Source of the DNA: Candidatus Thorarchaeota archaeon
GTDB lineage: Archaea > Asgardarchaeota > Thorarchaeia > Thorarchaeales > Thorarchaeaceae
Length of the DNA: 52,191 nucleotides
Assembly: GCA_019057475.1 (NCBI GenBank)
Contig: DXJO01000044.1
Coordinates: 1 to 52,191 of the forward strand
Direction: 5' to 3'
Below the pieces are notes generated by a model that searched no databases, was not told where the DNA came from, and saw only the letters and a list, made by a program, of their open reading frames with translations. The first letter of the stretch is position 1; every line of letters starts with the position of its first letter. The translations under genes and the position numbers were made by a program. Shown one piece after another: positions 11,393 through 36,207 of this stretch.

Positions 11393-11495
11393 TCGGCATT
11401 ACTCATAGTATCGTTATTTCGGAGTAATATTAGATTGTTGATACAGGGGTTCACGGCCCAGTGAATCCGCTTAGCGCTAAATTATATGGCTCTAA

Positions 11496-11584: not shown

Positions 11585-11608
11585 GGCAAAAAAGGAAAGA
11601 AGAAAGTA

Positions 11609-13158: not shown

Positions 13159-13189
13159 CACGATCCTAAAGAAATAGGAGAGAATAGAA

Positions 13190-14752: not shown

Positions 14753-14761
14753 GGATCCTAC

Positions 14762-14789
14762 GACATGGGAGCCATCCGGCTCCTGTGTC
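14762..14789 (+). terminator. 12-bp hairpin after the transglutaminase-like gene
   Basis: GACATGGGAGCC-ATCC-GGCTCCTGTGTC; no clear U-tract. Confidence 0.4.
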
Positions 14790-14800
14790 AACTATAAGAG

Positions 14801-15223: not shown

Positions 15224-15232
15224 TGCTGTTAG

Positions 15233-15505
15233 GTGAATGAAATGGCTGAAATTGGAACGCCTACGAAATCCACACCACCGGATATGAACAAGAGAGAACG
15301 CAGGTCCACAGCCTGCGCCCTATGTGTCTGGATCGTCATACTTGCCTACTGTTGGGTATTTTCCACAACGGAAGTTCCATTAGAGAACATGAGTATCGGC
15401 GAATTGACCACTCGATTGATAATGTTGCTCATGTCGTTGTTTGTAATTTTCTTAGCAATCTACAAGATAGGGAGGGCGCTATTGAAACTCTACAAGCACA
15501 GGTGA
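15233..15505 (+). CDS. Small two-TM membrane protein
   Basis: Two hydrophobic helices and a basic C-terminus. Confidence 0.6.
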   Translation: MNEMAEIGTPTKSTPPDMNKRERRSTACALCVWIVILAYCWVFSTTEVPLENMSIGELTTRLIMLLMSLFVIFLAIYKIGRALLKLYKHR

Positions 15506-15573
15506 TTGAGAATGATAGAAGAGAGAAAATCTCGTGCAAAATCTCTGGTCAATGTTGATCAAATTGTCTTCAA

Positions 15574-16587
15574 TTAGGTCATCCTTTCTTTTCTTGTTTT
15601 CGTTGCCTTTTTCTTGGCCTTCTTTGGCTTTTTCTTGAATTTGGAAATCTCTTGCGAAACAGATTCTACATATTGCTTACGATCAAAAATCAGGTTGCCC
15701 TCGACAGCTGGACGTCTAAAGTTTAGGTCTGCAAGAGCACCGACCTTTACTTTCTCCGGGATTATTGAAGTGACTTTCCTTTCAGGTTTGATTCCACCAA
15801 TAACAAAAGGATGGTCCACATTCACATAGTCAGTAAAGAATTCACCTGATACAAGTCTGCGTACCAATTCATAGACATCAGATGGAGAAGCGCCGCTTGC
15901 GAGTTCAGTTTTCCTATAACGACGCTTAAGACCTTCGATATTGCGCTCTCCTCTCTTTATAGCCATCAGGAGTTTTTGTTGAATTTGAAGGCCCTTTTTC
16001 ACTTCATCAGGTATTGCAGAACCAAAGAAGCGTTCAACTCCAATTCTAACGTTTACATTGACACTGTCAATGTTAAGTTCACTCCAAGCACGCTCTAAAA
16101 TACTGACATCCTTTAGTGCTGAATGAATCCAATATATGTCGCTTCCTTCCTTCCGCTTTGGATTGATTGCAGCTTTTACCGCGACTAGTCTGTTCAGGAA
16201 ATCCTGACCAACGTGACCTTGGACAGTAACCATGAACCTCTCACTTTTTGGAAATTCTCCTAAATTACAAACCCATTTCATACCTTCTTGATCGAAGTCT
16301 ACTTTTACTAACCCTCCAGTATCAAGATCGATAACGTCGTATATCTTGAATCCATACATCACGGGCACTTCGACCTTTCCATGTGTTTTCCTGAGGATTC
16401 CTGAAGAAACTTCAAGCAGGTATTTCATTTCACTACTTAGAGTCAAGTAATTGATTCTAAAACTCTTGATTTCAGGTTTATAGGGTTTGAAATGCTTTGT
16501 AATGGCTTCAATTTTTTCTGCAATCGTTATTCCTGTTTTCATACCTGTCAATGCTTTGGTTAGTTGGTCCAATGGATTTCCACTCAA
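15574..16587 (-). CDS. Hypothetical protein with Lys-rich tail
   Basis: 337-aa ORF coupled to the upstream gene; no family recognised. Confidence 0.7.
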   Translation of the reverse strand: MSGNPLDQLTKALTGMKTGITIAEKIEAITKHFKPYKPEIKSFRINYLTLSSEMKYLLEVSSGILRKTHGKVEVPVMYGFKIYDVIDLDTGGLVKVDFDQEGMKWVCNLGEFPKSERFMVTVQGHVGQDFLNRLVAVKAAINPKRKEGSDIYWIHSALKDVSILERAWSELNIDSVNVNVRIGVERFFGSAIPDEVKKGLQIQQKLLMAIKRGERNIEGLKRRYRKTELASGASPSDVYELVRRLVSGEFFTDYVNVDHPFVIGGIKPERKVTSIIPEKVKVGALADLNFRRPAVEGNLIFDRKQYVESVSQEISKFKKKPKKAKKKATKTRKERMT

Positions 16588-17624
16588 TCACAATACCCCT
16601 CCTCAGTTGGTACTATCCTGTCCTTTATCCATTTGATATTAATCGGAATTTTGATTGCTTCTCTTTTGTTTTGACGCTCATCAATAACTCTCACCGCGAA
16701 TTCAATTGGCTCGTAATCATTTTGCAATGAATCTTGATATCGAAAACGCAACCCAACATTTTCAGTTGCTTGTGTGATATGCATCTCAGGACTTCCTTGT
16801 TTCAGCTGAACATCATCTGTAGGAAATCTGTCGAAATAGAATAGCAGTGAATCAATCAGGATATTCTCCATTTGTCTTGAGAGGAGTTCTTTCAACATAT
16901 CTGTATTTTCAGGGTTGCCTATCCATTCTCTGAAATCATCAAGATCGTGCTCATCTAAGTCTAAAGGTAACTCACCCTTATTTAGTCTATCAGCGTAAGT
17001 CTGGACCTCACGTTCCAACCACTTAGGGTCAATCCTGATTGGTCGCTCATTCAGTTCTTCATCCGGCGTTTCTTTGAAGATTGATAACAGCCGACCTATA
17101 AGCTCTCTATAGAGGGATTCGGGATTAGTTTCGAAACCACCTCCGATGTTGAAATCAATTGAGATATTCACCTTCCCAAACCCATAGAGCTTCATAGTTA
17201 TCTGAACTAACCTACTCAGATTTGTGTCATCAGATAGGGTTACGAATTCGGGACACTCTAGAAGTTCTAATTTAGGTCTATAGAAGTGGGCTCTCATTTT
17301 TTGTTCTATCGTCGGTTCCCCTTCCTTGAAAAATGACACCGTGAAGTCATTGATAAGATGTAGATTGGAAAACAAGCTTTTGGTGGCAATTGTGAAACCA
17401 AAGAACCCTTGACTTTTAAGCTTGGTAATTCTTACACCATTTTCTTCTTCAGTATGAGACTCTACATTGTAAAACTGCTTGATTTCAAGGTCTGTTGGTA
17501 GATTAACGACAATGTGGTCATAGATATGCTTGGAGTCCCAAATTAGATGAACAGGTACTTCTTCAAGGGGAAGGGCCCATGGAGCAACATAGCATGAGAG
17601 ATCCATCTCGATAATCCTCCACAT
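16584..17624 (-). CDS. Hypothetical acidic protein
   Basis: 346-aa ORF with AT-rich codons; no family recognised. Confidence 0.7.
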   Translation of the reverse strand: MWRIIEMDLSCYVAPWALPLEEVPVHLIWDSKHIYDHIVVNLPTDLEIKQFYNVESHTEEENGVRITKLKSQGFFGFTIATKSLFSNLHLINDFTVSFFKEGEPTIEQKMRAHFYRPKLELLECPEFVTLSDDTNLSRLVQITMKLYGFGKVNISIDFNIGGGFETNPESLYRELIGRLLSIFKETPDEELNERPIRIDPKWLEREVQTYADRLNKGELPLDLDEHDLDDFREWIGNPENTDMLKELLSRQMENILIDSLLFYFDRFPTDDVQLKQGSPEMHITQATENVGLRFRYQDSLQNDYEPIEFAVRVIDERQNKREAIKIPINIKWIKDRIVPTEEGYCD

Positions 17625-17725
17625 TCGTCAAACCACGATGAAAATGGTTACAATGTACGGTCCTTTTCAACCCTCTTAAACTTCTCGTAGAATGGATAAT
17701 GATGTCTTAGAGGAATTTATTAGGG

Positions 17726-17971
17726 ATGGAAGAGCACTCACTCTTGGTGAAAATTATGAGTGGTAAGGCCATGGGATTGATGATTCAGGTTATCATCCTG
17801 CTGATAATATTCCTTATGATAGGGTCTGTCTTGTCCTGGACAGTCTTGGACCCGAATCTGACTTGGGACCAGAGAATGGTTGGTGCGGGCATCGCAGTGG
17901 TAGCCATTGCCATCCTTCTTGGTGTAACTGTCAAGTGTGTCTTCAAGGGCGGACGAATGACAATCGGCTAG
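17726..17971 (+). CDS. Small two-TM membrane protein
   Basis: Two long hydrophobic segments. Confidence 0.6.
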   Translation: MEEHSLLVKIMSGKAMGLMIQVIILLIIFLMIGSVLSWTVLDPNLTWDQRMVGAGIAVVAIAILLGVTVKCVFKGGRMTIG

Positions 17972-17984
17972 GAGGTACGGTTTC

Positions 17985-18212
17985 ATGGCTCAAGTGTTGC
18001 AAATCATTGGTATAGTAATTGCAAAGACAATCAAGTACTGGGGAATGCCATTACTTGGTGCACTACTAATGCTCGGATTCGGCTGGGTTTCTTATGGTAC
18101 ATTAGTTTGGCTAGAAGCCTTGGTAGTATTCCTTTTGGTCTTCATGGTCAACTATGCATTGTTGTGGCGACGGAAAATTCCTGCAGGAAAGTACAGCCAC
18201 GTAGTGAATTAA
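17985..18212 (+). CDS. Small membrane protein
   Basis: SD GGAGGT upstream; two hydrophobic helices followed by WRRK. Confidence 0.6.
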   Translation: MAQVLQIIGIVIAKTIKYWGMPLLGALLMLGFGWVSYGTLVWLEALVVFLLVFMVNYALLWRRKIPAGKYSHVVN

Positions 18213-18316
18213 GCACTTCACTCATCCATAATCCTTCTACTCACTGAACGCATCTCGAATTGCATCAATGATTACAAGTAGTTGTTCCTCGGGATCTAGG
18301 CCCTCTCAATCTTTTT

Positions 18317-19444
18317 CTACTCAGCCAACGCCCGAGTAAGCGCTGTCATAATCATATCAGCATCCCATTCAGCTTTGATAGCCTTGCCACCGCCTACACC
18401 ACGAGTCAGGTCTTTCATCTTTTTGGCAGTGATGTGTCTCGACAACTCTCGTTTGAGAGCATCTATCATGGACTCTTGACGGTCCACTTCCAGATAGCGC
18501 AGAGCACTGCGGTACTTCTCCTTGAGTAATGATATGGCGTCCTCGTCAATGTCGGCCAATCCACTGTATCGAGCAGGCATTTTGTCTAGTCCCGCCTTGT
18601 GTCCCATCAGGTATTCAGCCTCGGCTTCATCGAGTGCTCGGCCAATGTTCTTTCTGAAGTACTTGCGCAGGCCATACACTCGAAATCGCTTGAATGATTC
18701 GCCAGTGGGGTGCTTACCAGTGATGTTATCGACCAGACGGTTGAAGTAGCATCTCAAAGTGTTCGTCAACAAAGGCATCCCCGTTATGCTGACCACGTAG
18801 GACTTGGCTTTGAATCTCTCGCCTTTGGACCGTCTAAGATCTAAAAGCTGTTTCAGATACTTAGTGCCTTCGGGGGACAAGAAGGTGACGTACCAATCTC
18901 CTGTCTTTCGTTGCTTGAGCTTGATTGATAGGATATCATCATTCTGCGACAAAGACCTGCTGATGTTCTCGTATCTAAGGTTACAAACATCGACTGGCCT
19001 CATTCCGCTGTAAGCTATCAATGAGAATGCGACCTTGTATTTGAGCTTGGCCTGTCCGAGAATCATCTTCAGTACATCCTTGTTTGGAATGTAGTCGAAG
19101 TAGACTCTACTCTTTGGGATGTCCCGCGGCTTGATTCGGATATGCTTTCTGTTGTCACCGAACCACCTGCAAAGGGCATTCCAAGCCTGCTTGAGGGTGT
19201 TACCGGATAGGGGATCGAAGTCCCTGCCTAATTTCTTCGACATAACGAAGTGATATTCACTCTGCAAGTACAGCAGAAAGTCTTCCATTCTGTCTTCTGT
19301 CTTCTCTAGGTCCCATTTCAATGTGGCATTGGGGCTGGCTTCGCAATATTCACAGAACCTTTCAACCCAATCGACATAGATACCTTTGGTCTTAGGGTTC
19401 CGGATTCGTTTCTTCCATCTTATCCATTTGTCTTTTGACGACAT
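18317..19444 (-). CDS. Tyrosine recombinase/integrase
   Basis: YSGMRPVD (R), QRKTG (K), YGLRKYF (H/YxxR), YLMGH and ARY (catalytic Tyr); full length and not split. Confidence 0.92.
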   Translation of the reverse strand: MSSKDKWIRWKKRIRNPKTKGIYVDWVERFCEYCEASPNATLKWDLEKTEDRMEDFLLYLQSEYHFVMSKKLGRDFDPLSGNTLKQAWNALCRWFGDNRKHIRIKPRDIPKSRVYFDYIPNKDVLKMILGQAKLKYKVAFSLIAYSGMRPVDVCNLRYENISRSLSQNDDILSIKLKQRKTGDWYVTFLSPEGTKYLKQLLDLRRSKGERFKAKSYVVSITGMPLLTNTLRCYFNRLVDNITGKHPTGESFKRFRVYGLRKYFRKNIGRALDEAEAEYLMGHKAGLDKMPARYSGLADIDEDAISLLKEKYRSALRYLEVDRQESMIDALKRELSRHITAKKMKDLTRGVGGGKAIKAEWDADMIMTALTRALAE

Positions 19445-19663
19445 AGTGTTTCAATTAGTAACTAGACGCAAGGCCATATAGACTTACCTAATAGGGGGAT
19501 ATTTCCGGCTCCTTATTAAATGATAGCGTGACATTGACGTTGCCGAGCTTCATAGCGCCTGACTAATGTTGTTCAGCGCAGTAGATTCGTAGACATCTTA
19601 ATCCAAGTACAGTAGAAATTTTAAGGCATGTTCCCAATGTGGAGATGCTTGCGATGTGAGAGG

Positions 19664-20200
19664 ATGACTACAGCGGCTTATAGATTCAAGATTGTCATGC
19701 TGGGAGATGGTGCAGTAGGCAAGACAGCACTGACCACGCGCTTCACTCAGGACAGCTTCGAAGCCGATTACAAGCGGACAATCGGTGCGGATTTTGCAAT
19801 CAAACGAGTGAATCTTCCTGAGAGGAATGTGATTGTATCGCTTGCAGTTTGGGATCTCGCCGGGCAGCCGCGTTTCGAAGTCGTAAGACAGTCGTTCTAT
19901 CGTGGTGCTCGGGGCGGGCTATTGGTATTTGATGTGACAAGACGCAGAACCTTCCTTAACATAGAACGCTGGAAAGAAGAAGCGTTCAAGGCGCTGGGAA
20001 CTGAAATTCCACTGGTGATTGTAGCCAACAAGGTAGACCTTGTCGATGATCGTGTTGTGACCACCAAGGAGGGGAAGAAGTACGCCAAATCAAAAGGTCA
20101 CGTGTATGTTGAATCAAGCGCTCTCACAGGTGAAAATGTTGAGGAGTCATACTCCACACTCTGCAGAACAATGATGGACTCAACTAAGAAGTCCATGTGA
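19664..20200 (+). CDS. Rab-like small GTPase
   Basis: GDGAVGKT, TIGADF, WDLAGQPRF, SFYRGA, NKVD, ESSAL; no C-terminal Cys prenylation motif. Likely start at 19664. Confidence 0.95.
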   Translation: MTTAAYRFKIVMLGDGAVGKTALTTRFTQDSFEADYKRTIGADFAIKRVNLPERNVIVSLAVWDLAGQPRFEVVRQSFYRGARGGLLVFDVTRRRTFLNIERWKEEAFKALGTEIPLVIVANKVDLVDDRVVTTKEGKKYAKSKGHVYVESSALTGENVEESYSTLCRTMMDSTKKSM

Positions 20201-20209
20201 GCAGCATTC

Positions 20210-21340
20210 CTAGCGCATTCTACGAACTGCCGCCTTGAGTAGACCAAGAGCTTTTTTGCATTGCCATTGAGCATAGAAGACACGCTTATCGCGGAGTGTC
20301 CCCTCATCGTATTGAGCTCGAATCTCATTGAATTTGGCTATCATCTCATCTTTACGAGTAAGCTCGGGGTCAGCCTTGATTTCCTCAAGGAGTTCCTCAA
20401 ATGGGCGTAATACAACCGCGAGCTCCTTGATATCCCAGCGGATAATGGCTCCTGAACCGTCAGCAGTTATGAATGAGAGGTCGCCCGGAATGCACTCGAG
20501 TCCATCAATCTCACTCAAGGTCGTTGCTGTACCCTCAATCGAATTGCTCTCCAGAGACCAGACGTAGAGGTCTTTGTCGCCGGAACCCGATGCGAGCAGT
20601 TTGCTATCGCTACTGAAAGTGAGGCATCTCACTTCATCGGAATGGCCCTGAAGCATGCAATCATTCTTGAGGGGGTGGCTCTCAGCATCCCACAGGATTA
20701 TGCTGTGGTCCGAGGACCCTGATGCCAAGAACTGTCCATCTGGTGAGAATACGACATCTAGTACCGCTGCGCGATGATCTATGTGTTCAGCTGTCATCTT
20801 GCCGCTGCTGGGATCCCACTCATGGATTGTGGCATCGACGCCTCCAGAGACTATTCTGTCACCTTGGGGAGACCAATCAGATGATACAACGTAGAGAGAA
20901 TGGCCCTTGAGGTGATGAATCTTGAATTTATCATCAACATCCCATACAATGAGTGTTGTATCGCCGCTCCCGGACACAATCATATCACCGTCTGGAGAGA
21001 AGGACAGTGCAAGTACAGGATACGTATGACCCTCAAATCGAGCAATTACATCTCCGGTCTTTATGTCCCAAAGCTTCACAACGCGATCTACGCCGCCAGA
21101 AGCAACAATATCCCCTCGAGGACTGAATGCCAACGAGGTACATAGACACTCGTCCTGCATTCTCTGAACCTCATCTCCGTTCCGCACGTCGAGTAAACGT
21201 ATGGTCTTATCCTGAAGCGCAGTCGCAAGAAGACGACCAACCTTGTTCATGATTAGTCGTCGAGTTATCTCTGAACCGCGCTTAGCTGGGGGCTTGAGCA
21301 CATTCGGCTGTAGAAAGAGGGAAAGGTCCATGGACTCCAT
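20210..21340 (-). CDS. WD40-repeat beta-propeller protein with helical C-terminus
   Basis: About seven GH...FSPDG...SGSxDxT...WD repeats. Confidence 0.93.
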   Translation of the reverse strand: MESMDLSLFLQPNVLKPPAKRGSEITRRLIMNKVGRLLATALQDKTIRLLDVRNGDEVQRMQDECLCTSLAFSPRGDIVASGGVDRVVKLWDIKTGDVIARFEGHTYPVLALSFSPDGDMIVSGSGDTTLIVWDVDDKFKIHHLKGHSLYVVSSDWSPQGDRIVSGGVDATIHEWDPSSGKMTAEHIDHRAAVLDVVFSPDGQFLASGSSDHSIILWDAESHPLKNDCMLQGHSDEVRCLTFSSDSKLLASGSGDKDLYVWSLESNSIEGTATTLSEIDGLECIPGDLSFITADGSGAIIRWDIKELAVVLRPFEELLEEIKADPELTRKDEMIAKFNEIRAQYDEGTLRDKRVFYAQWQCKKALGLLKAAVRRMR

Positions 21341-21422
21341 CTATTTCACTCACAGAACTAGTTCTCGGGCGCTCCACTCTTTGCTAGTGCTAAAAAGGTT
21401 GTGCGAATGCATCGCGATTAGA

Positions 21423-22700
21423 ATGCGCTTCCTGCTAGTAAGGGTTAAATTCGAAGCTGATTCCAACACACTAACAGGGGGGCTCACCGTACCCGAAGAA
21501 AGGTCAAGATCTCTTGGCAGGTCGATAGGCGGCACAGACGCACTACGAAAGCTGAAGAGAGTCGTGAAGAAGATTATGGGGCCAGGTCAGGACAAGTTAG
21601 CCCTAGCTGTTTCTCGACTAGAATCAATACAGGCCTGCAGAAACATGTCCCTCACTGGGGATGATGACCAGAAGATCCTCGCAGTATGTCGTCTTGCTGA
21701 GTACGGCTCTGAAGCTTTTGAATCGCTCGAGCTTGTGCTTCATGACGATAGCGAGAAGGTTCGCGTTACAGCAGTTGGCATGATTGGATACCTGGACGAC
21801 CTACGAGGCATCCAAGCTCTTCAGCCAATGACTAACGACTCAAGTGGCAATGTCCAGTGGATGACTCAGTACTCAATCCAAAAGCTATGGGAATCGCCGG
21901 CTGAGCCCGAAGTTCGTACAATTGCTAGAGAGGTGAAGACAGCCGAGGTCAGGTTCGTGCTCGACGAGCCAATGCCATTGTACTATGCTGACAACGTGAT
22001 AGTTGACCACCAATATTCAATCGCGGCAAACAGCTTTTCCTTCATCCTAGGTGTGCACAACCAGTCAAGCGAACCCCTTCAAGATGTGACTGTGGCCATA
22101 CTGGCATTCCCCTCTGGGAGTCTCAAAGCTCCCAAGAAGCGAATCGTGAAGATTAGGGAAATTCCAATCGCAGATAGGATAACGCTTGAGTTCAACATGC
22201 CGATCTTTAGGGAGTCCATCGAAGGCGAAATTGTAACTGCTGTGCGGTTCACGGATACCAAGGGCGATAGAATCGCGGCAAAGGCAGGACACTGTTTTGT
22301 GCGGTCTTTCTTCGAGCACTTAGAACCCAAGAAGACCACATCAGAAGAATTTCTCAAAGCCAAGAGGGGGATGAAATACTGGAATAGAGAACACGTTGTC
22401 GAGGTAGAACCGCAGAAGTTACTGAATCTCCTGGAGAATGTCATGGAGAACAAGAATCTCTACGTATTCCGATCTGAAACCGCGGAACGCGAAGGAATGC
22501 TCATGGGCCTAATGGCAGGAATGGGACGAGGACAGTTCGGAGGAGCATTGATAGCCATTGCACTCACACTTGTGGGCTATAGGGATGATAACCTCTCAAA
22601 ACTGAGAATTGATATTTACGCAGAAGATGTGGAATTCCTTCACACTGCAGCAAGTCAGCTTTTCGAGAGTATTCAGAAGCGAATCCTCGGAACTGAGTAG
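21423..22700 (+). CDS. HEAT-repeat protein with adaptin/coatomer appendage-like C-terminal region
   Basis: HEAT units (LHDDSEKVRVTAVGMIG, MTNDSSGNVQW), then a beta-sandwich (FILGVHNQSSEPLQDVTV) and a platform-like region (FFEHLEPKKTTSEEF). Start codon uncertain. Confidence 0.6.
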   Translation: MRFLLVRVKFEADSNTLTGGLTVPEERSRSLGRSIGGTDALRKLKRVVKKIMGPGQDKLALAVSRLESIQACRNMSLTGDDDQKILAVCRLAEYGSEAFESLELVLHDDSEKVRVTAVGMIGYLDDLRGIQALQPMTNDSSGNVQWMTQYSIQKLWESPAEPEVRTIAREVKTAEVRFVLDEPMPLYYADNVIVDHQYSIAANSFSFILGVHNQSSEPLQDVTVAILAFPSGSLKAPKKRIVKIREIPIADRITLEFNMPIFRESIEGEIVTAVRFTDTKGDRIAAKAGHCFVRSFFEHLEPKKTTSEEFLKAKRGMKYWNREHVVEVEPQKLLNLLENVMENKNLYVFRSETAEREGMLMGLMAGMGRGQFGGALIAIALTLVGYRDDNLSKLRIDIYAEDVEFLHTAASQLFESIQKRILGTE

Positions 22701-22705
22701 TATCT

Positions 22706-23272
22706 CTATACCAGCCCGCCAGCCTCTAGAATTTTAATTGCTAGCTCTAGAAATGCTGCCTCCACATTTTCGCCGGTTTTTGCAGAGGTTTCCATGAATG
22801 ATGAAGTAGTGCCCTGTGCTGCAATGTAGTCTGACAACGCCTGCCCCTCCTCAGTTGTGACCATCATCGACTTCATCGCGGGATTATCAATGAACTGATC
22901 TCGGAGGTCAATCTTGTTGCCAATCAGCACAACCGGAATCTTCTTGCCTGTATTCTTCCAGCACTCCTCCAGCCAGTTCTTCATGTTGTCGAAGGACGAG
23001 CGCTCCACCGTGGAGTAGACAGCCAGTGCACCCTGGGAGCCTCTGTAGAATGTAGAACGTACACTCTTGAAGTGGTCTTGACCTGCAAGATCCCAGATCT
23101 GTATGCTAACATTGTGCCCACCAGCGAGTTCCATCCGCTTGACTGCAAAATCAGCTCCAATCGTAATCATATAGTTGGCTCTGAATCCTTCACCCATGTA
23201 GGTTAAGCGCAGGCTTGTCTTCCCGACAGAACCATCGCCCATGAGTACAACTTTGAAGAGTGCGGTGACCAT
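22706..23272 (-). CDS. Rab-like small GTPase
   Basis: GDGSVGKT, TIGADF, WDLAGQ, NKID, ETSAKTG. Confidence 0.95.
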   Translation of the reverse strand: MVTALFKVVLMGDGSVGKTSLRLTYMGEGFRANYMITIGADFAVKRMELAGGHNVSIQIWDLAGQDHFKSVRSTFYRGSQGALAVYSTVERSSFDNMKNWLEECWKNTGKKIPVVLIGNKIDLRDQFIDNPAMKSMMVTTEEGQALSDYIAAQGTTSSFMETSAKTGENVEAAFLELAIKILEAGGLV

Positions 23273-27531: not shown

Positions 27532-28323
27532 TCAAACTTGTGTTTTCCCACTTCGCCATTGCTCGAAGATAGCCATGTACATGCACTCATCGGGACCAAT
27601 CCACATTTCACCAGAGTCAAAGGATGCATCCACAAACTCCACAGGAGCATCGCGAATCAGAGCTGCAGGAATGGACTCATCAGATTCCCCCATAACAGCA
27701 GTGCACGCGGATGAGAGATTATCCGCAACCGCTCGTCTCGTTATCCTCATCGTATTGCCAAACAAGTCATTCCGTCCGCGATCATCCGCCACGGGTTTGA
27801 AGCCAGCAACGCCAAGCGCCATGCCAATGTTGCCAAGACGTAAAGGCTGCGTGCGGCTATCTATTATCAGTACTCCCACGGTCTTTCCCAATCGCTTCTT
27901 GATTTCGCTTCGAATGCGCATTGCGCTCACCTTTGGATTAACAGGTAGTAGAGAGGCGTAGCCCGGAGGGACGTTAGATTTGTCAACTCCTGCGTTGGCC
28001 ATCAGAGTGTTGTTCTTGATGGTCAGGAGCACGTGGGAAATTCCGCCTAGTATCTCATCAGCCTCCTGGATGACTAGCTCTGCCACCGCGGGTAGTAGAT
28101 CATATCTGTCTGCAAGGCTTTGAGCCATCGGAGAAACTTCGACCTCTGATAGCTTCACCACCTGCCCCTCGGTTGTCCCCAAAGGGGTTTCAGCCATAGC
28201 TAAGATATCATTGTCCTGAATCTCCTCTCCAGTGTTCGAAATTGCCTCTATGAGAATATCCAGCATATCATCCTCTGCTGTGATGATTCGTGTCTTGATT
28301 GGTATAACTAGCAAGTCCGTCAT
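27532..28323 (-). CDS. cofE: Coenzyme F420-0:L-glutamate ligase family
   Basis: ANAGVDKSN, IIDSRTQPLRLG, DDRGRNDLFG, AVADNLSS, MGESDE. Confidence 0.88.
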   Translation of the reverse strand: MTDLLVIPIKTRIITAEDDMLDILIEAISNTGEEIQDNDILAMAETPLGTTEGQVVKLSEVEVSPMAQSLADRYDLLPAVAELVIQEADEILGGISHVLLTIKNNTLMANAGVDKSNVPPGYASLLPVNPKVSAMRIRSEIKKRLGKTVGVLIIDSRTQPLRLGNIGMALGVAGFKPVADDRGRNDLFGNTMRITRRAVADNLSSACTAVMGESDESIPAALIRDAPVEFVDASFDSGEMWIGPDECMYMAIFEQWRSGKTQV

Positions 28324-29747
28324 TACTCCCGGTGTGGTTTCTTAGCTCTCTGAAGTTTCATGCGGGCGCCCATTATGCACTTGTCCCCCTTTCTCCCGCC
28401 CATGGGATTGTGCCTTGTTCCCATCGAGTTCATGCATCTTGCTGCAACTGCAGCACCCATGGCAAGGCCATCTTCTACAAACATCAATTGATGCGAGTCT
28501 GTCCAGAAGGAGCCATCAATCTTCGTCAGATGTTCGGCAATGAGCCTGGGTTTGTTTCCAGTAGTTGCAGCTCGCCCTGTGATGCCCAAGGATGTATCGT
28601 CCAACACAATGCCCTCCGCCTCAGCAAGAGTCACAATGCGCTGAACTATGTCAGCTTGGATTATGTCGATTGCATTCATCAGAAGACCGATACCGCCTGA
28701 ACTTGCAATCTCACTTCCAAGATTCTCAAGCTTGCTCAGATCAGAACCATTGTCACCCGCGTCAACACCTATCAGAACTACTCCGGACTTGTCAGCAGCA
28801 TCAGCGCTAACTGGGACTGTGCCGAATCTCTTTGCTTCGCGTGGCACCCGTTTGACTATCACAATCTGACGTGCGCGCTCAATCCAGTTCTGATCGATTT
28901 CCTTATCTGATGCATTCCAGTTGTCTTGCAGATCTAAAACACACCCGGTGGAACCATCCACATGCCCTGTTCCTCGAACTAGGGCGTCAGGTATCGCTCC
29001 TGCAAGCCCAGCAAAGGAGCCGATTGTATTGGCATAGGGAATTCCATCATTGGTTACTCTGCCCGCAAGAGTTGTGCCAAAGTCCAATGTCATCACGGGA
29101 TTCCGGAAATCAACCTCAGTGCTCTTGGCAGCTCCCTTTAACCCAGCTGTAACAAGTTCCCCTTCCATCTCATTAGCGACGATTTCTGCGTTTGCCGGAG
29201 GCAGGGAGCTTGCGACAGCCCCGTCAAAGTACACTTTCTTTAGCCAAGTGAAGTCCCTAATGCCAGGAGGAAGATTCTCCGGTGATAGTGATGCAGTCAT
29301 CTTCCGCGGAGGAACGCCTGCGGCGAGACATCCGTCCGCTAACGCTTGGACCACGGCACCAACCTCAGCGGGCTCAGCAAAACTTGCAGTTACTCCTGTA
29401 GACCGCACTACAAAGTGAAGGTCTCGTTCGATGTCAACCCTGGCTCGAGAGAGCACCGTGGTGAGAACGTCAGCAATCATCTCTGAAACCGCTTCACGCG
29501 TGAGGTCTATTCCAACTAGCGTGGACCCAAAGACAGTCTCATCAGGTCGGGGGGGTCTCACTTCTCTTGTGAGCCGGACCTCTTTCTCAATCTCGTAAAT
29601 CTCTGCAGTCTTTAGGTTGGTCGATACAAGAATGCATTTCGTTGTGGTATTACCCAGCTCAACTGATGCTACCGTATAGAATGGGGCCATCCGAAGGGAC
29701 GACACCCCGATTCTTCGGGGTCGCACTATCAACGGTTTCTTTGTCAA
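28323..29747 (-). CDS. Methanogenesis marker protein 14 (ASKHA/actin-like ATPase fold)
   Basis: VASVELGNTTTKCIL, VRPP, FVVRSTGV, NEMEGELVTAG, LDFGTTLAGR, FVEDGLA, RCMNSMG. Likely TTG start near 29747. Confidence 0.88.
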   Translation of the reverse strand: MTKKPLIVRPRRIGVSSLRMAPFYTVASVELGNTTTKCILVSTNLKTAEIYEIEKEVRLTREVRPPRPDETVFGSTLVGIDLTREAVSEMIADVLTTVLSRARVDIERDLHFVVRSTGVTASFAEPAEVGAVVQALADGCLAAGVPPRKMTASLSPENLPPGIRDFTWLKKVYFDGAVASSLPPANAEIVANEMEGELVTAGLKGAAKSTEVDFRNPVMTLDFGTTLAGRVTNDGIPYANTIGSFAGLAGAIPDALVRGTGHVDGSTGCVLDLQDNWNASDKEIDQNWIERARQIVIVKRVPREAKRFGTVPVSADAADKSGVVLIGVDAGDNGSDLSKLENLGSEIASSGGIGLLMNAIDIIQADIVQRIVTLAEAEGIVLDDTSLGITGRAATTGNKPRLIAEHLTKIDGSFWTDSHQLMFVEDGLAMGAAVAARCMNSMGTRHNPMGGRKGDKCIMGARMKLQRAKKPHRE

Positions 29748-29763
29748 TCTCAACACCGCCAGT

Positions 29764-30699
29764 TCAAAGAAGTCGTTTGAATGGATGATCAGCAGATGGC
29801 TCCGTTCCAAACTCCAAGCTCGCTGCCTCAGCGGCAAAGATATCCGCCATGGCGACCGCTGGAAAAACCCGTTCTGCATTGCCTATTGGCCCGTAGAGTA
29901 TGAAGTCCGCTCCCATCATCTGCACGATGAGATTCGATGCCGCATCGCACACTCGGTATGCCTCTTTGTTGGCTTTCTTTCGATTTCGAAGCCAAGTCCA
30001 TGATGATGGAGCATTGTGAGCACCAGAACCGGTAGGTAGACCATAGACTGTCTTTGATACAAAAGTGAATGCGGCGGCAGAGCCGGCTCCTGCACCCATT
30101 GCAGTTGTTGCTGTGTCGATGAGAGGCTTGGTCACGCCTAGTTCTCGGCTCAGCGGCAGAAGCCCTTTCTTAAGCTCCAGAGCCCCTTCATCCAAGATCA
30201 GTCTACGTCCTGCGATTGATGGGTCCTGTGGATTGAATGCAAGGATTATGGCACACTCGTGTTGAATCTCAGCAAGTGCTTGTATCTCCTCATCAGATGC
30301 AGATACGTTAATTGAATTGTATACTGCTCTATCTAGTAGCCCAACTTCCTCAGCATAACGAAGTCCTGCAATTCGGACCATTGGTTCTGTGGAGTCAATT
30401 AGGAATGGAGAATCTGTCACGTCAACTATGAGATCAATATACTTCTGCATGGCGGCCTCCGATTCCGAGAAAATCTGCACCATTGAGGGATTCCCGGTGA
30501 TCCCGGCAAGCTCATCCTGTTTTCGAATCAACGCCTCGGCTGCTGCCCTGTCTATGATTCCACGTTTGGCATTCTCAACAATTTTGTGACCGCTGTAGAA
30601 TATCGTACCAATCAGAACAGTAGGGGTTTCTCCTGGAGTTCCGCCAATATTCACTCCACCTACATTGTGGATGACCTGTTCCTTCTCAAACATGAACAT
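29764..30699 (-). CDS. mtrH: Methyltransferase MtrH family (copy 1)
   Basis: FEKEQ...IGGTPGETPTVLIGTIFY, IDST, YNSIN, HNAPSSW, ILYGPI. Confidence 0.92.
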   Translation of the reverse strand: MFMFEKEQVIHNVGGVNIGGTPGETPTVLIGTIFYSGHKIVENAKRGIIDRAAAEALIRKQDELAGITGNPSMVQIFSESEAAMQKYIDLIVDVTDSPFLIDSTEPMVRIAGLRYAEEVGLLDRAVYNSINVSASDEEIQALAEIQHECAIILAFNPQDPSIAGRRLILDEGALELKKGLLPLSRELGVTKPLIDTATTAMGAGAGSAAAFTFVSKTVYGLPTGSGAHNAPSSWTWLRNRKKANKEAYRVCDAASNLIVQMMGADFILYGPIGNAERVFPAVAMADIFAAEAASLEFGTEPSADHPFKRLL

Positions 30700-30701
30700 C
30701 G

Positions 30702-31400
30702 TTACTGCATCTCCTTTCCAACTAGTATCGTTCCAGATTCAATTGACCGGACTTCCACACCCACACTCGATGGGCCTACGCATAGCACTGCATGTGAGTC
30801 TGATCTTGCAACAAGTGAGCTCCAGGGGTCATACGAAACACCAAATTCGGGAAGCAATGCAACTGACCCGCCAATGCTTGCTGAATGCGTCCCCCCGGAC
30901 CCCACTCTGAACTCCACCCATATAGCCTCCTCTGGATAAGGGCCGGGATTCCTGGCGTTGAGTTCCTCCACACGGCTCGCCATCTCTTGCGGGTTGGAAA
31001 CATTCATCATGTTGATGAACTCAACTTGGTTTCGAAATCGCTCCACACCCTCGAGCGGCACATTTTCTATGTATGGAATTGCTCCTGGAGAATCTACAAT
31101 CTTCCGAGAGTCTTCGTCCACTCCCTTTTCGTGGAGACAAGCTATTGAAGTGCCAGTTCTATGACCAGGTACCTCTGGTCCAGCTAGAATGAAGAAACGA
31201 ATGGATGGGTTAGATATCACATTTGCAATGATACGCTCGATGCCAATATTCTCAGTCTTACACGTGCCAATGATTGCGTAATCAGCAGAGACCTCGATTT
31301 TCTTTCCGAGAGTGCAGATTGCCACGCATGATTTTGGGTCACCGACTTCATAGTCACCGGGGACAGGAGGCCAAGCATGCTCGTTTCTGGACGTTTCCAA
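30702..31400 (-). CDS. mtrA: Corrinoid protein MtrA family, soluble (no TM anchor)
   Basis: WPPVPGDY, CKTENIGIE, ISNPSIRF, EVPGHRTG (cobalt-ligand His), GAIPYIEN. Confidence 0.92.
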   Translation of the reverse strand: METSRNEHAWPPVPGDYEVGDPKSCVAICTLGKKIEVSADYAIIGTCKTENIGIERIIANVISNPSIRFFILAGPEVPGHRTGTSIACLHEKGVDEDSRKIVDSPGAIPYIENVPLEGVERFRNQVEFINMMNVSNPQEMASRVEELNARNPGPYPEEAIWVEFRVGSGGTHSASIGGSVALLPEFGVSYDPWSSLVARSDSHAVLCVGPSSVGVEVRSIESGTILVGKEMQ

Positions 31401-31412
31401 GTGTTAGTCCCC

Positions 31413-32330
31413 CTACTCGAATGTGGGCGGTGCAAACAATTGCCTATCCAATCCAAGAGCCTGGTTCGCTTCCGCAACTGCTGATGCAATGGCATTGGAC
31501 ATCAGAGCGACGGATGTGAATACCTCCTTCGTTCGAGACATCGATCCGTACATGATGCAGTCGGTTGCGAATAGTTGAGCAGCCACTGTCGAGGATACTA
31601 CAGTGGCCGTGTGTGTCACCTCATCATCGAAACCAGGTTGTTTGATGAATTTCCAAGCTGATGGCGCGTTGTGAGGGGCTAGACATGTGGGAAGGCCCAG
31701 CTCCGACTTAATGGCCAGTATGGTTCGGTAATCTAGGCCGTAACCCGCGCCCACAGGCATTGTCGCAGGATCTATTACCATCTTCTCGATACCCATATTC
31801 TCTGCCTCAGAAATCATCTTCTTGATGGTTTCCATGCGGTCCGGAAGAGATGTTGCCCTTGGTGACCAACCCAAGACAACGGCCATGTTCAGATTGCTAT
31901 TCCGCAGGAGTTCGCTCTCTTCATCCTTCATTGAGAGATTGATAGAGTTGTAGATTGCTCGGTCTGCAAGGCCTGAATCACTGCAATACTCAATCGCTCG
32001 CCGTCTAGCCTTTGAGCCAGTTGACTCAAACATGAATGGGCCATCGTAATTCTCTGCAAGCCATGAGAGGTGCCGCTCCATGGCCACACTGGTTCTCCCA
32101 AAGGCTTGTATGACAAGTGGATGACCCGTCCTCTCAGCCATAGCGATTCCAGTGTCAATCCACTCCTTGGTCATCTTCTTGTCGAAGAGACCTTCTTTCG
32201 TACTCTCAACAAGAGGCTGGCCCTTGAAGAAGAGACCTCCAATCAGCACTGTGGGATTCTCTCCCGGATGGCCGCCTATCTTTACGCCTCCAAAATCAAA
32301 TGTCTGCTGCTCTTTCTTGAACACGAACAC
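31413..32330 (-). CDS. mtrH: Methyltransferase MtrH family (divergent copy 2)
   Basis: FKKEQ...IGGHPGENPTVLIG, FEST, YNSIN, HNAPSAW, IMYGS. Confidence 0.88.
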   Translation of the reverse strand: MFVFKKEQQTFDFGGVKIGGHPGENPTVLIGGLFFKGQPLVESTKEGLFDKKMTKEWIDTGIAMAERTGHPLVIQAFGRTSVAMERHLSWLAENYDGPFMFESTGSKARRRAIEYCSDSGLADRAIYNSINLSMKDEESELLRNSNLNMAVVLGWSPRATSLPDRMETIKKMISEAENMGIEKMVIDPATMPVGAGYGLDYRTILAIKSELGLPTCLAPHNAPSAWKFIKQPGFDDEVTHTATVVSSTVAAQLFATDCIMYGSMSRTKEVFTSVALMSNAIASAVAEANQALGLDRQLFAPPTFE

Positions 32331-32340
32331 CTAGCACACC

Positions 32341-33354
32341 TCACTTCGGTCGAGGATGCAAACCAGTTCCTTTGACAAGCTCTGGAATGCTCTCTTCCCA
32401 GCCTACGCCCATGATGTGGACGCCGTTTACCCCAGCAATTTTCTTCACTGCCTCAATTGTTTCCATTGCTATTCGGAGTCCTTCTCCTCGTACCTCACTT
32501 CTCTTCTCTGCGCCCTTCAGACTAGCTCCTGCCTTTTCGAGCCGCTCTATGAATTCCTCAGGTATCTTGATGCCAGGAATCTGTCGATTCATGAATGCTG
32601 CCATCTTGGGACCCTTCAGGGGGATGATTCCAGCGAGTACCTTTACATTGTAGCCACGGATACCTTTCATGAATTCTTCAAGTCTAGAAGTATCGTAAAT
32701 CGCTTGAGTCTGGAAGAACTGTGCACCCGCATCCAGTTTCTTCTCAACACGCCACACATGCATTTCCATTGGGTCGGCGTAGGGGTTGAATGTAGCGCCA
32801 AGGTAGTAGTCAGGAGTTCCCTCAAGCTTGTCCCCAGCGAGGTCGGTTCCGCCCATCAAATGACTTGCCAGACCCAGTGCCTGAATGGAGTCGAGATCAT
32901 AGACCATCTTAGTCTGGGGGTGAGAACCCAGTAGTGTGTGGTCTCCAGTCATGAAGAGGATATTCCTAATTCCCATGGCATACGCACCATAAAGCTCACT
33001 CTCAAACAGAATCCTGTTCCGGTCACGAGCTGACATCTGCATGATTGGCTCTGCTCCGGTTTCAAGCACGTAATGTGCACAAGTCATGCTGCTCATTGTG
33101 GGAATGCCGCGAACATTGTCTGTGATATTTATGGCATCGCAGTAATCCTTGACGAGGCGCGTGCGCTCAACCACAAGCTGGTGATTCGCTCCGTGAGGGG
33201 GACCTACCTCCCCTGTTACAACGAATTCCCCGCGTTCAAGCAGGCTCTTCAAACGAGTATCTACCAGGGTTCTATTCTCCTCTAGATTGACCAGAAGGAC
33301 AATCAACCAGCAGCACATAATCTCTTTGGTAGCCATGGCCGGTTTTTGAATCAA
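32341..33354 (-). CDS. metF: Methylenetetrahydrofolate reductase MetF
   Basis: TGEVGPP, NITDN, ARDRNR, MTGDH, YDLDS, KKLDAGAQFFQTQ, GVHIM. True start is probably ~90 nt further in. Confidence 0.92.
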   Translation of the reverse strand: MIQKPAMATKEIMCCWLIVLLVNLEENRTLVDTRLKSLLERGEFVVTGEVGPPHGANHQLVVERTRLVKDYCDAINITDNVRGIPTMSSMTCAHYVLETGAEPIMQMSARDRNRILFESELYGAYAMGIRNILFMTGDHTLLGSHPQTKMVYDLDSIQALGLASHLMGGTDLAGDKLEGTPDYYLGATFNPYADPMEMHVWRVEKKLDAGAQFFQTQAIYDTSRLEEFMKGIRGYNVKVLAGIIPLKGPKMAAFMNRQIPGIKIPEEFIERLEKAGASLKGAEKRSEVRGEGLRIAMETIEAVKKIAGVNGVHIMGVGWEESIPELVKGTGLHPRPK

Positions 33355-33378
33355 CTAGATGGGAATGCGTTCGAGCAC

Positions 33379-35451
33379 TCAACGCCGAAACTTGGGATAG
33401 AGGACCGAAACCACTAGAATCACAGCGGCAGACCCGGTTATGATTATGACTACCAGATTCTGAAGGATGAAAGCAGTAATATCGAAACCGCCATTACTCT
33501 CCACATTCACCCATACGGTATCACTGGCAGAATTACCAGCCCCATCGTATACGACCAACGTATAGTTGTAGACTCCTATCTCAAGACTATGGAGATAGAA
33601 GGTCAGGTCAGAACCGTCCCAGTCACCAGAGGATAGCAGAGTGGAGTTGCGATAGAGCTCGTAGCTGTCGGGTGAAGACGATTCTGCCTGCCAAGAAATG
33701 GGGTGACCATAATCCAGATACGTGAAAGTTATGTCAGCTGGGCTTGAGAGCAAGATAGCCATATTGAAGTAACTTGGATTGGAGCTCAATTCAAGGAAAT
33801 GGTCAGGAACGTATATCGAAATTACAAATAGGCCAGATGTGACCATAGGTTCAGCCATTGGGTCCGGATCCCACGAATTCCATCCTGAGGCACCAATCTC
33901 TGAAAAGACGTGTTCAGGCAGTATCGGCTTGAGGAATATGGAATTCATCTCCCAGTATGAGAGGGACCCAAACTCGATAACCACTGTGGTTGATGTAGTA
34001 CTGTAAGCTGTGAGAAGATCATCCAATCCTTCTCCGTAGGGGTTGCCTGATCCATCCTTATAGAAGTTGAAAGTGAACGCAACGTCCTCAGCTGTTATCG
34101 ATGTGTTGTCAGTCCACTTAGCATTGTCAACCAGCTCGAATGTAAACCGGGTTCTTCCAACGGGAACACCCGGATTGTCATCATTGGTTTCCGTGGTGAA
34201 AGATTCAGCAAGCCAAGGAATAAGTTCGCCAGCGGGACTACGTCGCATCAGGCTGTCGTACATGTTGCTGAGCACGAGCGCAGTGTGCTCTGACGAGGTC
34301 ACCATGAAGTTGAACGTGTCGATACTCTCAGGAATACCAATCTTAAACGTGCCGCCGAATGGACCACCTTGTGAGCTCATCAAACGCGTTTGATAATTCG
34401 TCCACCAGCAAGGAATGCTGTCAACGATGTCATCAACAAACCCCTCAAATTTATCGGTTCTGTAAGCTCCAAACTTGAAATTGTTGTAGCAGACTATGAT
34501 TGGACACTCATAGATCAGAATCTCCTGCATTTGATTCAGGGCGTCCATGACTTCATCATAGTAGGGAGAGTTCAGAAGGTTATCTCGATGTGTGTCAAAA
34601 GTGGCATTTGCGAAGTTCGCGTAGTTGATAAAATTCACATCTGCGTTATCCGACCAGAACTCGTAAGCCATCCATGTGACATCAAAGTCGCCGAAGTCCT
34701 TCCCAATAAACGCCACGTCGTAATCTTGGTGGTTATAGAGCTTGATCAGAATCTCATAACCCTCCATGGGATGGACCACCACATCGACATGAAGAGCTTG
34801 CATCGCTGATTCGAAGGCCGCCCCAATTTCAATCGAAATACTCGAGGAAGCTGCTACATCAATAGAAATGTTGAAGGGATCCCCGTTTGGGGCATGCCGA
34901 TAGGTTTCACCCCCGGGTATCGAGAAGCCTGCATTGTCAAGTAATTGGTTTGCATAGTCGATGTCAGACGCGTAGTAGTTGCAAGATAGATCTCCATCAA
35001 TGCAATACGGGTTGGCCAGTGGAATAGGGGAATCTTGAGGAGTGGCCATACCCTCAAAGAGGTCCGTACAAATTGCCTGCTTGTCATATGCAAAAGCGAT
35101 TGCTCTTCGCAGTGTAGTTATACTTAGCGGGTATTTGGCGGTGTTCAGAATCATGTGACCATACCCATTCCTGTCATACTTGGCGATTTCGATGTTGGCA
35201 GCTGTGTCAAGCGCATGCAACTGCGATGAATCATCCAGTTTTGCCTGAAGAATGTCAATATCATCATCTTGAATCGCTTGTACCAAGTTCGCTGTATTCG
35301 GGATTATGTCGTACCTTATTCTGTCCAAGTACGGACCTTGCTCTAGGGTTGTTTCTCCTTGAGCTATCATAGGAAAAGGCGCAACATCCGAAAGTAGCAG
35401 GAGAACAGTCAGCACCAACAGAAATGTACCCAAAGAATTCTTTGATTTCAT
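33379..35451 (-). CDS. Family 5 (Opp/Dpp) substrate-binding protein, apparently circularly permuted, with Ig-like domain and TM anchor
   Basis: LRRAIAFAYDK and ANQLLDNAGF come before GGTF...YDSL...PWLAES...WTD..ITAEDVAFTF; C-terminal YNYTLVVYDGAGN plus TM. Confidence 0.88.
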   Translation of the reverse strand: MKSKNSLGTFLLVLTVLLLLSDVAPFPMIAQGETTLEQGPYLDRIRYDIIPNTANLVQAIQDDDIDILQAKLDDSSQLHALDTAANIEIAKYDRNGYGHMILNTAKYPLSITTLRRAIAFAYDKQAICTDLFEGMATPQDSPIPLANPYCIDGDLSCNYYASDIDYANQLLDNAGFSIPGGETYRHAPNGDPFNISIDVAASSSISIEIGAAFESAMQALHVDVVVHPMEGYEILIKLYNHQDYDVAFIGKDFGDFDVTWMAYEFWSDNADVNFINYANFANATFDTHRDNLLNSPYYDEVMDALNQMQEILIYECPIIVCYNNFKFGAYRTDKFEGFVDDIVDSIPCWWTNYQTRLMSSQGGPFGGTFKIGIPESIDTFNFMVTSSEHTALVLSNMYDSLMRRSPAGELIPWLAESFTTETNDDNPGVPVGRTRFTFELVDNAKWTDNTSITAEDVAFTFNFYKDGSGNPYGEGLDDLLTAYSTTSTTVVIEFGSLSYWEMNSIFLKPILPEHVFSEIGASGWNSWDPDPMAEPMVTSGLFVISIYVPDHFLELSSNPSYFNMAILLSSPADITFTYLDYGHPISWQAESSSPDSYELYRNSTLLSSGDWDGSDLTFYLHSLEIGVYNYTLVVYDGAGNSASDTVWVNVESNGGFDITAFILQNLVVIIITGSAAVILVVSVLYPKFRR

Positions 35452-35550
35452 ATCCGAAACTCACCCTCTAGCTTGTGCTGACTGATGGATGAATCAACAT
35501 AATAGGATTGCGCCGGCCAGAGAGAGTATGAAGGTCAAAAGGGACACGCA

Positions 35551-36207
35551 TCAGATTTCTTCATGAACTATGCTTCGGGGCCCCCTCGCGAGGCTCCAAT
35601 CCTTCATCTCCCATATTTTCTTGATATTGTCCAGCTTGTCCAGCTTCTTCAACCGGTCGTAGATGAGCTGCCACGCACATTCTGTTTCGAGGTCTCTCTC
35701 ACACATTCCGTCCATGGACCCTCCACAAGGCCCATTTAGGAGACCCTTGGCACATCGTGAAACTGGACAGATTCCACCTGTGAGATGAAGAACACACTCA
35801 CCACACATCGAGCATCGTTCGTCGTGGTGATACCGTTCGGGCATCACACCTAGAAACTTCGAATCAACTGCGGGAAACGCCTCCTTCTCGGGAAGCAACT
35901 CGACAACAGCTTGCGTAGCAACTCCACACGCTTGGATAAGAAAGGCATCTGCTTCCTCGATCATCTCGATGTTCGCATCAATCTCTTGCTTCAGTGCATT
36001 TGCATCGCACATGCCGCCCTCTACGAAGATATATCCGAGCACTTTCTTTCCATGTCCGGTGAGAAAGTCATCCATATCCTCGAGCTGGAGTATTCCGCCG
36101 ACATCACACATCTGGGCACAACCGGAGTCGCCAAAAAGGACTACTTTCTCAAATGAGTCCAACATCTCGAGAATATCCTCCGACGATTTGAGATCCATGA
36201 CAATCAT
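35551..36207 (-). CDS. metV: MetV (MTHFR C-terminal/Fe-S subunit)
   Basis: CSMCGECVLHLTGGICPVSRCAKGLLNGPCGG...CE...CAW. Likely start MIV at 36207. Confidence 0.88.
   Translation of the reverse strand: MIVMDLKSSEDILEMLDSFEKVVLFGDSGCAQMCDVGGILQLEDMDDFLTGHGKKVLGYIFVEGGMCDANALKQEIDANIEMIEEADAFLIQACGVATQAVVELLPEKEAFPAVDSKFLGVMPERYHHDERCSMCGECVLHLTGGICPVSRCAKGLLNGPCGGSMDGMCERDLETECAWQLIYDRLKKLDKLDNIKKIWEMKDWSLARGPRSIVHEEI

Follow-up and report, generated by a model that had tools for sequence, protein, structure and literature searches.

A minus-strand operon of six genes on a contig of a Candidatus Thorarchaeota genome (assembly GCA_019057475.1, contig DXJO01000044.1) encodes the cobamide protein MtrA between two different MtrH paralogues, preceded by the methylene-tetrahydropterin reductase gene metF and followed by marker 14 and a cofE-like ligase gene. 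In this MtrA, the membrane anchor is replaced by a tail containing a hairpin that, judged by profile comparison, is homologous to the N-terminus of MtrB. The window analysed here is the entire contig (52,191 nt; C24) of a 3.34-Mb genome that is 96% complete and whose closest named relatives are Candidatus Thorarchaeota metagenome-assembled genomes. It is likely that the two MtrH proteins, H1 and H2, form a soluble unit with a tethered MtrA. The full chemistry, a soluble relay in which methyl groups would pass from a methanopterin-type to a folate-type carrier, is put forward tentatively. In the initial annotation of the region, a soluble folate-to-methanopterin methyl shuttle was proposed. What was upheld is a pump-free, soluble module of MtrA and two MtrH proteins that differ in specialisation and are linked to folate genes, but a shuttle in that direction is not supported in this genome.

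Gene order and the tail of MtrA

The locus was retrieved 56 times from Thorarchaeia, across 16 genera. The order H2-MtrA-H1 is found in all 56 loci, and therefore the arrangement is not due to chance. Also, metF lies directly before H2 in 52 of the 54 loci in which the flank is available, and marker 14 follows H1 wherever this could be seen (53/53). MtrA is present in 78 of 87 genomes of the class, the set in which Fhs and CdhD/E were also counted, with intact frames and identities across genera of 52-76%. In the source genome, the gaps from metF to the cofE-like gene are 10, 12, 2 and 16 nt, followed by a 1-nt overlap. Since no gap exceeds 16 nt, these genes are considered a single operon. 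The initial annotation did not list the sixth of them, the cofE-like glutamate ligase gene of the folate-cluster type.

The PF04208 protein of the operon is the only MtrA in the source genome. Its cobamide domain spans residues ~7-165, and His80 in the GHxTG motif is 100% conserved and aligns with 8Q3V_A. A histidine was reportedly described as the cobamide ligand of MtrA by Harms and Thauer in 1997. Within its last 70 residues, hydropathy peaks at 0.88, compared to 1.9-2.9 in 25 of 26 canonical MtrA proteins, indicating that no transmembrane helix is present. The anchor is replaced by a conserved tail of 55 residues, so that this anchor-less MtrA, although correctly described as such before, is not merely truncated. 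A profile built from 48 tails and compared with 177,635 PDB sequences has as its top match Methanothermobacter marburgensis MtrB (8Q3V_B, residues 7-26), with a weak E value of 0.17. In the reverse direction, a hidden Markov model built solely from methanogen MtrB N-termini ranks the MtrA open reading frame (ORF) first of the 8908 ORFs of the source genome (E 0.002; runner-up 0.9). The hhalign probability between tail and MtrB is 95%, and 40 of the 48 tails score above 10 bits with MtrB, against none of 960 shuffles. This likeness is visible by profile methods only, and a Pfam scan of the tail alone gave no match. The idea that the second half of the tail is another MtrB repeat was not supported: neither MtrB nor the first half matches it significantly.

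The tail is the only MtrB-like segment in the source genome, which modifies the earlier observation that mtrBCDEFG are missing from the window. No MtrE was detected in any of 41 complete genomes (the source genome and 40 relatives, the set also used for the Mer and Mtd counts), in a search that did not take in MtrF or MtrG, nor MtrC and MtrD separately. In the structure from Methanosarcina mazei, the MtrH dimer docks on a sheet made by residues 1-23 of MtrB (PMC12774963). By analogy with Mtr, the hairpin of the thorarchaeial MtrA may dock MtrH in the same way. A complex prediction of H1 and H2 with the MtrA tail scored 0.15 against a mark of 0.32 and was counted neither for nor against binding, and MtrA folded without an alignment gave an unusable model (predicted local distance difference test, pLDDT, 32). 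In four genomes of the class, a second, non-canonical MtrA with an N-terminal ferredoxin-like domain is encoded outside the operon.

Specialisation of the two MtrH paralogues and their partner genes

The two MtrH paralogues flanking MtrA are indeed divergent, as was first noticed from the IDST (H1) and FEST (H2) motifs at residues 101-104 of the respective proteins. H1 is a canonical MtrH, scoring 396 bits with TIGR01114 (cut-off 271 bits). In M. mazei MtrH, the residues T32/Q75/D103/N129/D196/H229/N230 bind the pterin and a basic patch has been proposed for the methanopterin tail (PMC12774963). H1 carries every one of these residues in its pocket (T32, Y35, H38, Q75, D102, N128, D195, H228 and N229), and also the basic patch (R238/K241/K242). 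In genus g16 (three loci), which lacks Mtd, Ftr and acetyl-CoA synthase (ACS), this H1 segment is shortened and acidic and the patch is mostly gone, with H2 unchanged; this is a slight hint of a connection between H1 and the methanopterin tail.

The H2 pocket consists of G32, F35, Q38, Q75, R79, E102, N128, D187, H220, N221 and W226, with G32, F35, Q38 and E102 in place of the T, Y, H/D and D of H1. H2 fails the canonical MtrH test (239 bits, T32G, D102E, K242/K243 patch lost). It also fails the signature of the bacterial methyltransferases MtgA and CmuB (S32, D75, D102, N129, D194, N227, R236), with 164 bits compared to 550 for NF047990 and with S32, D75 and D102 not kept. The residues N128/D187/N221 that contact the pterin ring are retained, as is a Lys or Arg at the position of MtgA Arg236. 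In MtgA, Arg236 binds the gamma-carboxylate of folate, and the D102A and N227A mutations abolish activity (PMC7154762). The retained Lys/Arg and the loss of the K242/K243 patch would fit a folate-type tail in H2. The ten pocket positions of H2 have a conservation of 0.986, against 0.757 for the protein overall and 0.942 for the H1 pocket; H2 is therefore not decaying. Near-invariant residues specific to H2 are W57, H70, R79, H87, E102, W155, R202 and C216.

Outside its own clade, which is confined to the class, the best full-length relatives of H2 are only 35-37% identical. A mixture-model tree places H2 within the archaeal MtrH/MtxH/H1 clade (100/99), apart from CmuB and on a long stem of 1.37 changes per site; an LG+G4 tree left it unplaced. 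Approximately unbiased tests (34 rows) reject neither a grouping of H1 with H2 (p 0.23) nor one of H2 with the MT2 side (p 0.45). A third paralogue, H3, is encoded on contig C40 alongside RACo and a corrinoid protein, and has the MtgA-like S32/D75/D102 signature.

The only MetF of the genome is 41-48% identical to MetF of the folate clusters of Methanosarcinia and Methanocellales, compared to 30-37% for the type found in anaerobic methanotrophic archaea of group 1 (ANME-1); this lower identity disfavours an ANME-1-type MetF. Across the class, MetF is more diverged where metV has been lost. The CofE-like protein is 43% identical to its CofE-like counterpart from the folP-metV-metF clusters of Methanosarcina and Methanocellales, against 35-36% for the other two CofE proteins of the genome, which score higher as true CofE (254 and 267 against 188 bits). 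Affinity to the folate cluster is seen in the cofE-like gene and, more weakly, in metF, and the operon has the appearance of a folate cluster merged with a remnant of Mtr. FolC was not found in the source genome, and therefore the CofE-like protein is a candidate folate glutamyl ligase. A precedent for metF beside an MtrH-family methyltransferase gene is found in Methylorubrum CM4, in which metF lies directly before cmuB; CmuB is specific for folate.

Marker 14 (DUF2114, m26) is also the gene next after mtrH in two canonical mtr loci, one of them from Methanocella. No solved structure matches it by sequence. Its predicted model (pLDDT 80) folds as an ATPase of the ASKHA type: a fold search matches ASKHA proteins, with RACo (3ZYY) at rank 11, and scores sugar kinases and TsaD as well as RACo. 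In language-model features, EutA is nearest to marker 14 (0.82-0.83), which is taken as a lead only, and hhalign comparisons with EutA and RACo are not significant (probability 0.3-11%). Marker 14 is a candidate cobamide reactivase of MtrA.

A possible methanopterin-to-folate relay and its alternatives

In the proposed relay, H1 and H2 would form an asymmetric dimer to which MtrA would be tethered by its fused MtrB hairpin, with the cobamide domain swinging between the two pockets. H1 would perform the ancestral half-reaction, transferring the methyl group from a methanopterin-type carrier to MtrA. H2 would replace the lost MtrCDE half and methylate a folate-type pterin, after which MetVF would pass the methyl-folate into the FolD/Fhs branch. 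No ion would be pumped, and the favoured direction would be from methanopterin to folate. Marker 14 would spend ATP to restore the cobamide of MtrA, and the CofE-like ligase would glutamylate the folate. For the source genome, the relay would require a methanopterin-side carrier that is either scavenged or synthesised by another route, and that is loaded from methylated substrates via H3 (MttB, MtmB-like). A wider evolutionary scenario is about as tentative: the membrane half of Mtr would have been lost, a duplicated MtrH would have taken over the second half-reaction and MtrA would have absorbed the hairpin, giving the first dedicated methyltransferase that joins methanopterin-type and folate-type carriers, with marker 14 as the ATP-dependent MtrA reactivase in all Mtr-bearing archaea.

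The direction proposed for the relay is based on energetics. According to tabulated energies, methyl-tetrahydromethanopterin (methyl-H4MPT) lies ~20-35 kJ/mol above methyl-tetrahydrofolate (methyl-H4F), and an uncoupled relay should therefore run towards folate, the reverse of the direction first assigned to it. For comparison, the methyl-transfer step to coenzyme M (CoM) has a value of -30 kJ/mol (PMC3685469).

The initial annotation called for a check of both carrier pathways and named the lack of one of them as evidence against a shuttle. The folate branch is present, with Fhs, FolD, a FolP-type synthase and MetVF in the source genome, in which PabB, like FolC, was not found; Fhs occurs in 81 of the 87 genomes. 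The methanopterin side of the source genome consists of Mch and Mer only, so that one carrier pathway is largely lacking. MetE, the homocysteine domain of MetH and AcsE were not found in the source genome either. Sources of methyl groups are present, namely H3 with RACo and its corrinoid protein, MttB, an MtmB-like protein and two URO-D-family proteins. Across the class, the pathway enzymes are patchy: Mer is found in 20 of 41 genomes, Mtd in 28 of 41 and CdhD/E in 49 of 87 (a few weakly). In 40 complete genomes, metV and CdhD/E are nearly exclusive (both in 1, metV only in 18, Cdh only in 18, neither in 3), although these genomes are related and are not independent data points.

Several of these observations weigh against the two-pterin relay. 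RFAP synthase (MptG), the methanopterin synthesis enzyme searched for, was not found in the source genome, and among 40 family genomes 39 lack it, with one above the cut-off. The source genome gave no match for Mtd, Ftr, FwdA/C/D or CdhA-E. Both mtd and ftr-fwdC are missing from the middle of assembled contigs that are otherwise collinear with those of relatives, and these are therefore true losses. Four relatives (92-97% complete) without Mer, Mtd and CdhD/E keep the whole operon. In addition, H2 has Glu at the essential Asp102 of MtgA and Gly at Ser32, and its catalysis may be impaired by the Asp-to-Glu change; at position 75 it has the Gln of archaeal MtrH, together with that family's His-Asn pair, and not the D75 of MtgA and CmuB. 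The Thorarchaeia MetF forms a clade of its own, and archaeal MetF of the ANME-1 type has been suspected of using methanopterin (PMC9012536).

An alternative is a single folate-type pool, in which H1 exchanges methyl groups between this pool and MtrA, H2 is a ligand-binding, non-catalytic subunit derived from the membrane-distal MtrH, and methyl-MtrA serves an enzyme encoded elsewhere. The operon persists although the methanopterin synthesis gene was not found and methanopterin enzymes are lost or patchy, the D102E and T32G changes affect the catalytic and ring-binding sites of H2, and H2 has its long stem. Also, contact with MtrA in the Mtr complex is attributed to the proximal MtrH alone, and the distal one is probably idle (PMC12774963). 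However, the H2 pocket, including the catalytic Asn221, is near-invariant, which would be unusual for a mere scaffold, and the H1 of the source genome keeps its methanopterin-type basic patch. No partner for methyl-MtrA is visible in a source genome without MetE, the MetH homocysteine domain, AcsE and ACS. This explanation is considered only slightly less probable than the full relay. The idea that MtrA donates methyl groups to a MesA/MetE methionine synthase was rejected because no PF01717 domain is present in the genome.

The near-invariant residues specific to H2 could instead shape a new site, at which H2 acts on a non-pterin methyl donor or acceptor such as a thiol, an amino acid or a methylated amine. 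The unit would then be a self-contained MT1-carrier-MT2 system feeding or draining methyl-folate beside MetVF. Its layout resembles that of substrate:pterin methyltransferase systems, and a second pterin would not be needed, which fits the genomes without Mer, Mtd and ACS. Against this, the Asn/Asp/Asn triad that reads the pterin ring is kept in H2, no substrate transporter or regulator is linked to the operon (the ABC binding protein is sporadic), and we know of no MtrH-family protein that acts on a non-pterin substrate. A non-pterin role for H2 is therefore considered improbable.

The direction proposed in the initial annotation, with methyl-H4F produced by MetVF and its methyl group raised by the relay to H4MPT for acetyl-CoA synthase or Mer, is very unlikely. 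It has some appeal in the 11 of 19 ACS-positive complete genomes that lack Mer, since there these searches showed nothing but the operon to connect a methylene reductase with ACS. AcsE was not found in the source genome, and the near-exclusive distribution of metV and CdhD/E hints at a differing use between lineages. However, the source genome is without ACS, Mtd, Ftr and FwdA/C/D, and the transfer would be uphill by the energy difference given above, with no driver in the operon unless marker 14 couples ATP to turnover. Finally, although neighbouring methanopterin genes were lost in the lineage, a decaying remnant without current function is effectively refuted by the intact frames, the conservation across genera, the wide occurrence of MtrA and the invariant His80 and pockets.

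A few further loci of the source genome touch on these pathways. The mch gene (C18:117375-119026) has been retained despite deletion of the adjacent ftr and fwdC, and this suggests a role for Mch beyond the methanopterin branch. At C51:59201-61230, a corrinoid protein gene adjoins that of the MtmB-like methyltransferase, a 459-aa frame without an internal stop and thus without a pyrrolysine codon. At C54:154665-157935, folP and an mptE-like gene (assigned by sequence) lie back to back with gcvT/gcvH-like genes, and at C42:221802-227425, a RuBisCO-like ORF (recognised by motif) is arranged in the same way with fhs-folD and a formiminotransferase-like gene. A radical SAM gene with an 'HMPTM' domain was considered as evidence for methanopterin and rejected, because it encodes the tetraether lipid synthase Tes; two Tes copies score above the cut-off, at window positions 50694-52178 and C29:126756-128393.

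Relation to known systems and other features of the window

Canonical, vertically inherited MtrAH without membrane subunits has been reported in Thorarchaeia, and the distribution and synteny of m26 have been used to connect it with Mtr (Adam et al. 2022, PMC9635834). In the parts of that study consulted, the function is given as 'a methyltransferase', and a second MtrH, an MtrB hairpin, a link with metVF and a cofE-like gene or a mechanism do not appear. The thorarchaeial MtrAH with marker 14 is thus already published, and for H2, the hairpin and the merger with folate genes no paper was found in a limited literature search.

With MtrABCDEFGH of methanogens and ANME (PDB 9QTS, 8Q3V), the module shares the MtrA cobamide domain with its histidine, the H1 pocket, the docking hairpin and marker 14 behind mtrH. 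Unlike that complex, it lacks MtrE, the anchor and the stalk, has two different MtrH proteins and has the hairpin fused to MtrA. Without MtrE, anchor and stalk, sodium pumping is not expected, and no CoM half-reaction is known. The mtxXAH genes of Methanosarcinales similarly encode an anchor-less MtrA paralogue followed by an MtrH paralogue, but with one MtrH, with MtxX in place of marker 14, without MetVF and in coexistence with a full Mtr. MtxX was not found in the source genome, and the thorarchaeial MtrA scores 161 against 279 bits for NF010654 (280 for ANME MtxA). In five loci of Methanosarcinales and ANME-2, MtxA has at its C-terminus a short beta-rich tail. By eye this looks similar to the MtrB hairpin, but the hhalign probability is weak (8%).

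MtgA of Desulfitobacterium and CmuB of Methylorubrum CM4, MT2 enzymes of the MtrH family that use folate, share with H2 the barrel and the Asn/Asp/Asn pterin triad, and metF adjoins cmuB as it does H2. They differ in having S32/D75/D102, MetH-type corrinoid proteins and homodimers, whereas H2 has G32/Q75/E102 and an MtrA-type carrier; in the source genome, it is H3 and not H2 that carries the MtgA-like signature. The MtrA-like/MtrH fusions of Atabeyarchaeia and Freyarchaeia (PMC11291895) are likewise Asgard MtrA/MtrH proteins without the membrane complex. There, a divergent MtrA-like clade is fused to MtrH, whereas the thorarchaeial MtrA is canonical and separate. Marker 14 resembles RACo/RamA and EutA in its ASKHA fold and its neighbouring B12 protein, but has no significant sequence match to them and no ferredoxin domain.

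What MtrAH does outside methanogens, and what marker 14 does, are named as open questions in PMC9635834. The soluble unit of four proteins could be expressed and assayed without membranes, and could reveal how MtrA docks on MtrH, whether the cobalt of MtrA is maintained in an active state by marker 14 and whether methyl groups can pass between the two C1 carriers of a cell. It also bears on the shift from methanopterin to folate in Asgard archaea, the closest relatives of eukaryotes.

Table 1. Features of the metV to cofE-like region (positions in the window)
Feature	Position	Strand	Evidence
metV, Fe-S/Zn partner of MetF	35551..36207	-	PF12225 E 5.5e-35
Family-5 ABC substrate-binding protein, 690 aa	33379..35451	-	PF00496
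metF, methylene-tetrahydropterin reductase, MetVF type	32341..33267	-	PF02219
mtrH2 (FEST copy), Thorarchaeia-specific MtrH paralogue	31413..32330	-	PF02007; TIGR01114 239 bits
mtrA, cytosolic cobamide domain, linker and beta-rich tail	30702..31400	-	PF04208; PDB 8Q3V_A E 8.6e-50
MtrB N-terminal hairpin fused into MtrA (by profile comparison), residues ~179-201	30798..30866	-	motif VxLLPEyGvxxDP
Second conserved half of MtrA tail, HPS..IEV..GTIL.GKE	30705..30794	-	conserved in all tails
mtrH1 (IDST copy), canonical MtrH	29764..30699	-	PF02007; TIGR01114 396 bits; 9QTP E 5.9e-79
Marker 14 (DUF2114, m26)	28323..29747	-	TIGR03285 612 bits
cofE-like gamma-glutamyl ligase, folate-cluster type	27532..28323	-	43% to CofE-like gene of folP-metV-metF clusters

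The limits of the region coincide with genes, from the ATG of metV at 36207 to the end of the cofE-like gene at 27532, and the flanking genes hflX (before metV) and larC (after the cofE-like gene) are on the minus strand as well. The mtr genes lie downstream of metV and metF as first described, but the family-5 ABC binding-protein gene splits the two. This gene is one of 17 paralogues in the source genome, separates metV from metF in no more than 3 of 56 relatives and is probably a passenger; it appears at varying positions in or near the operon in several genera. The metV gene is a single copy in the source genome and is found at the operon locus in 23 of the 56 relatives' loci. The start of metF is probably a CTG at 33267 behind AGGAG. 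A bacterial promoter and terminator scan, ill-suited to archaea, was at chance level.

Elsewhere in the window, positions 4927-19444 hold an integrated mobile element of lower GC content, with genes for a tyrosine integrase (18317-19444), a D5-like helicase (6098-7630) and a ParB-like protein (10604-11392), and several proteins without a Pfam match. Next to it, at 19628-23272, two small Rab-like GTPase ORFs flank one WD40-like and one HEAT-repeat gene; all were recognised by motifs, the HEAT match being weak.

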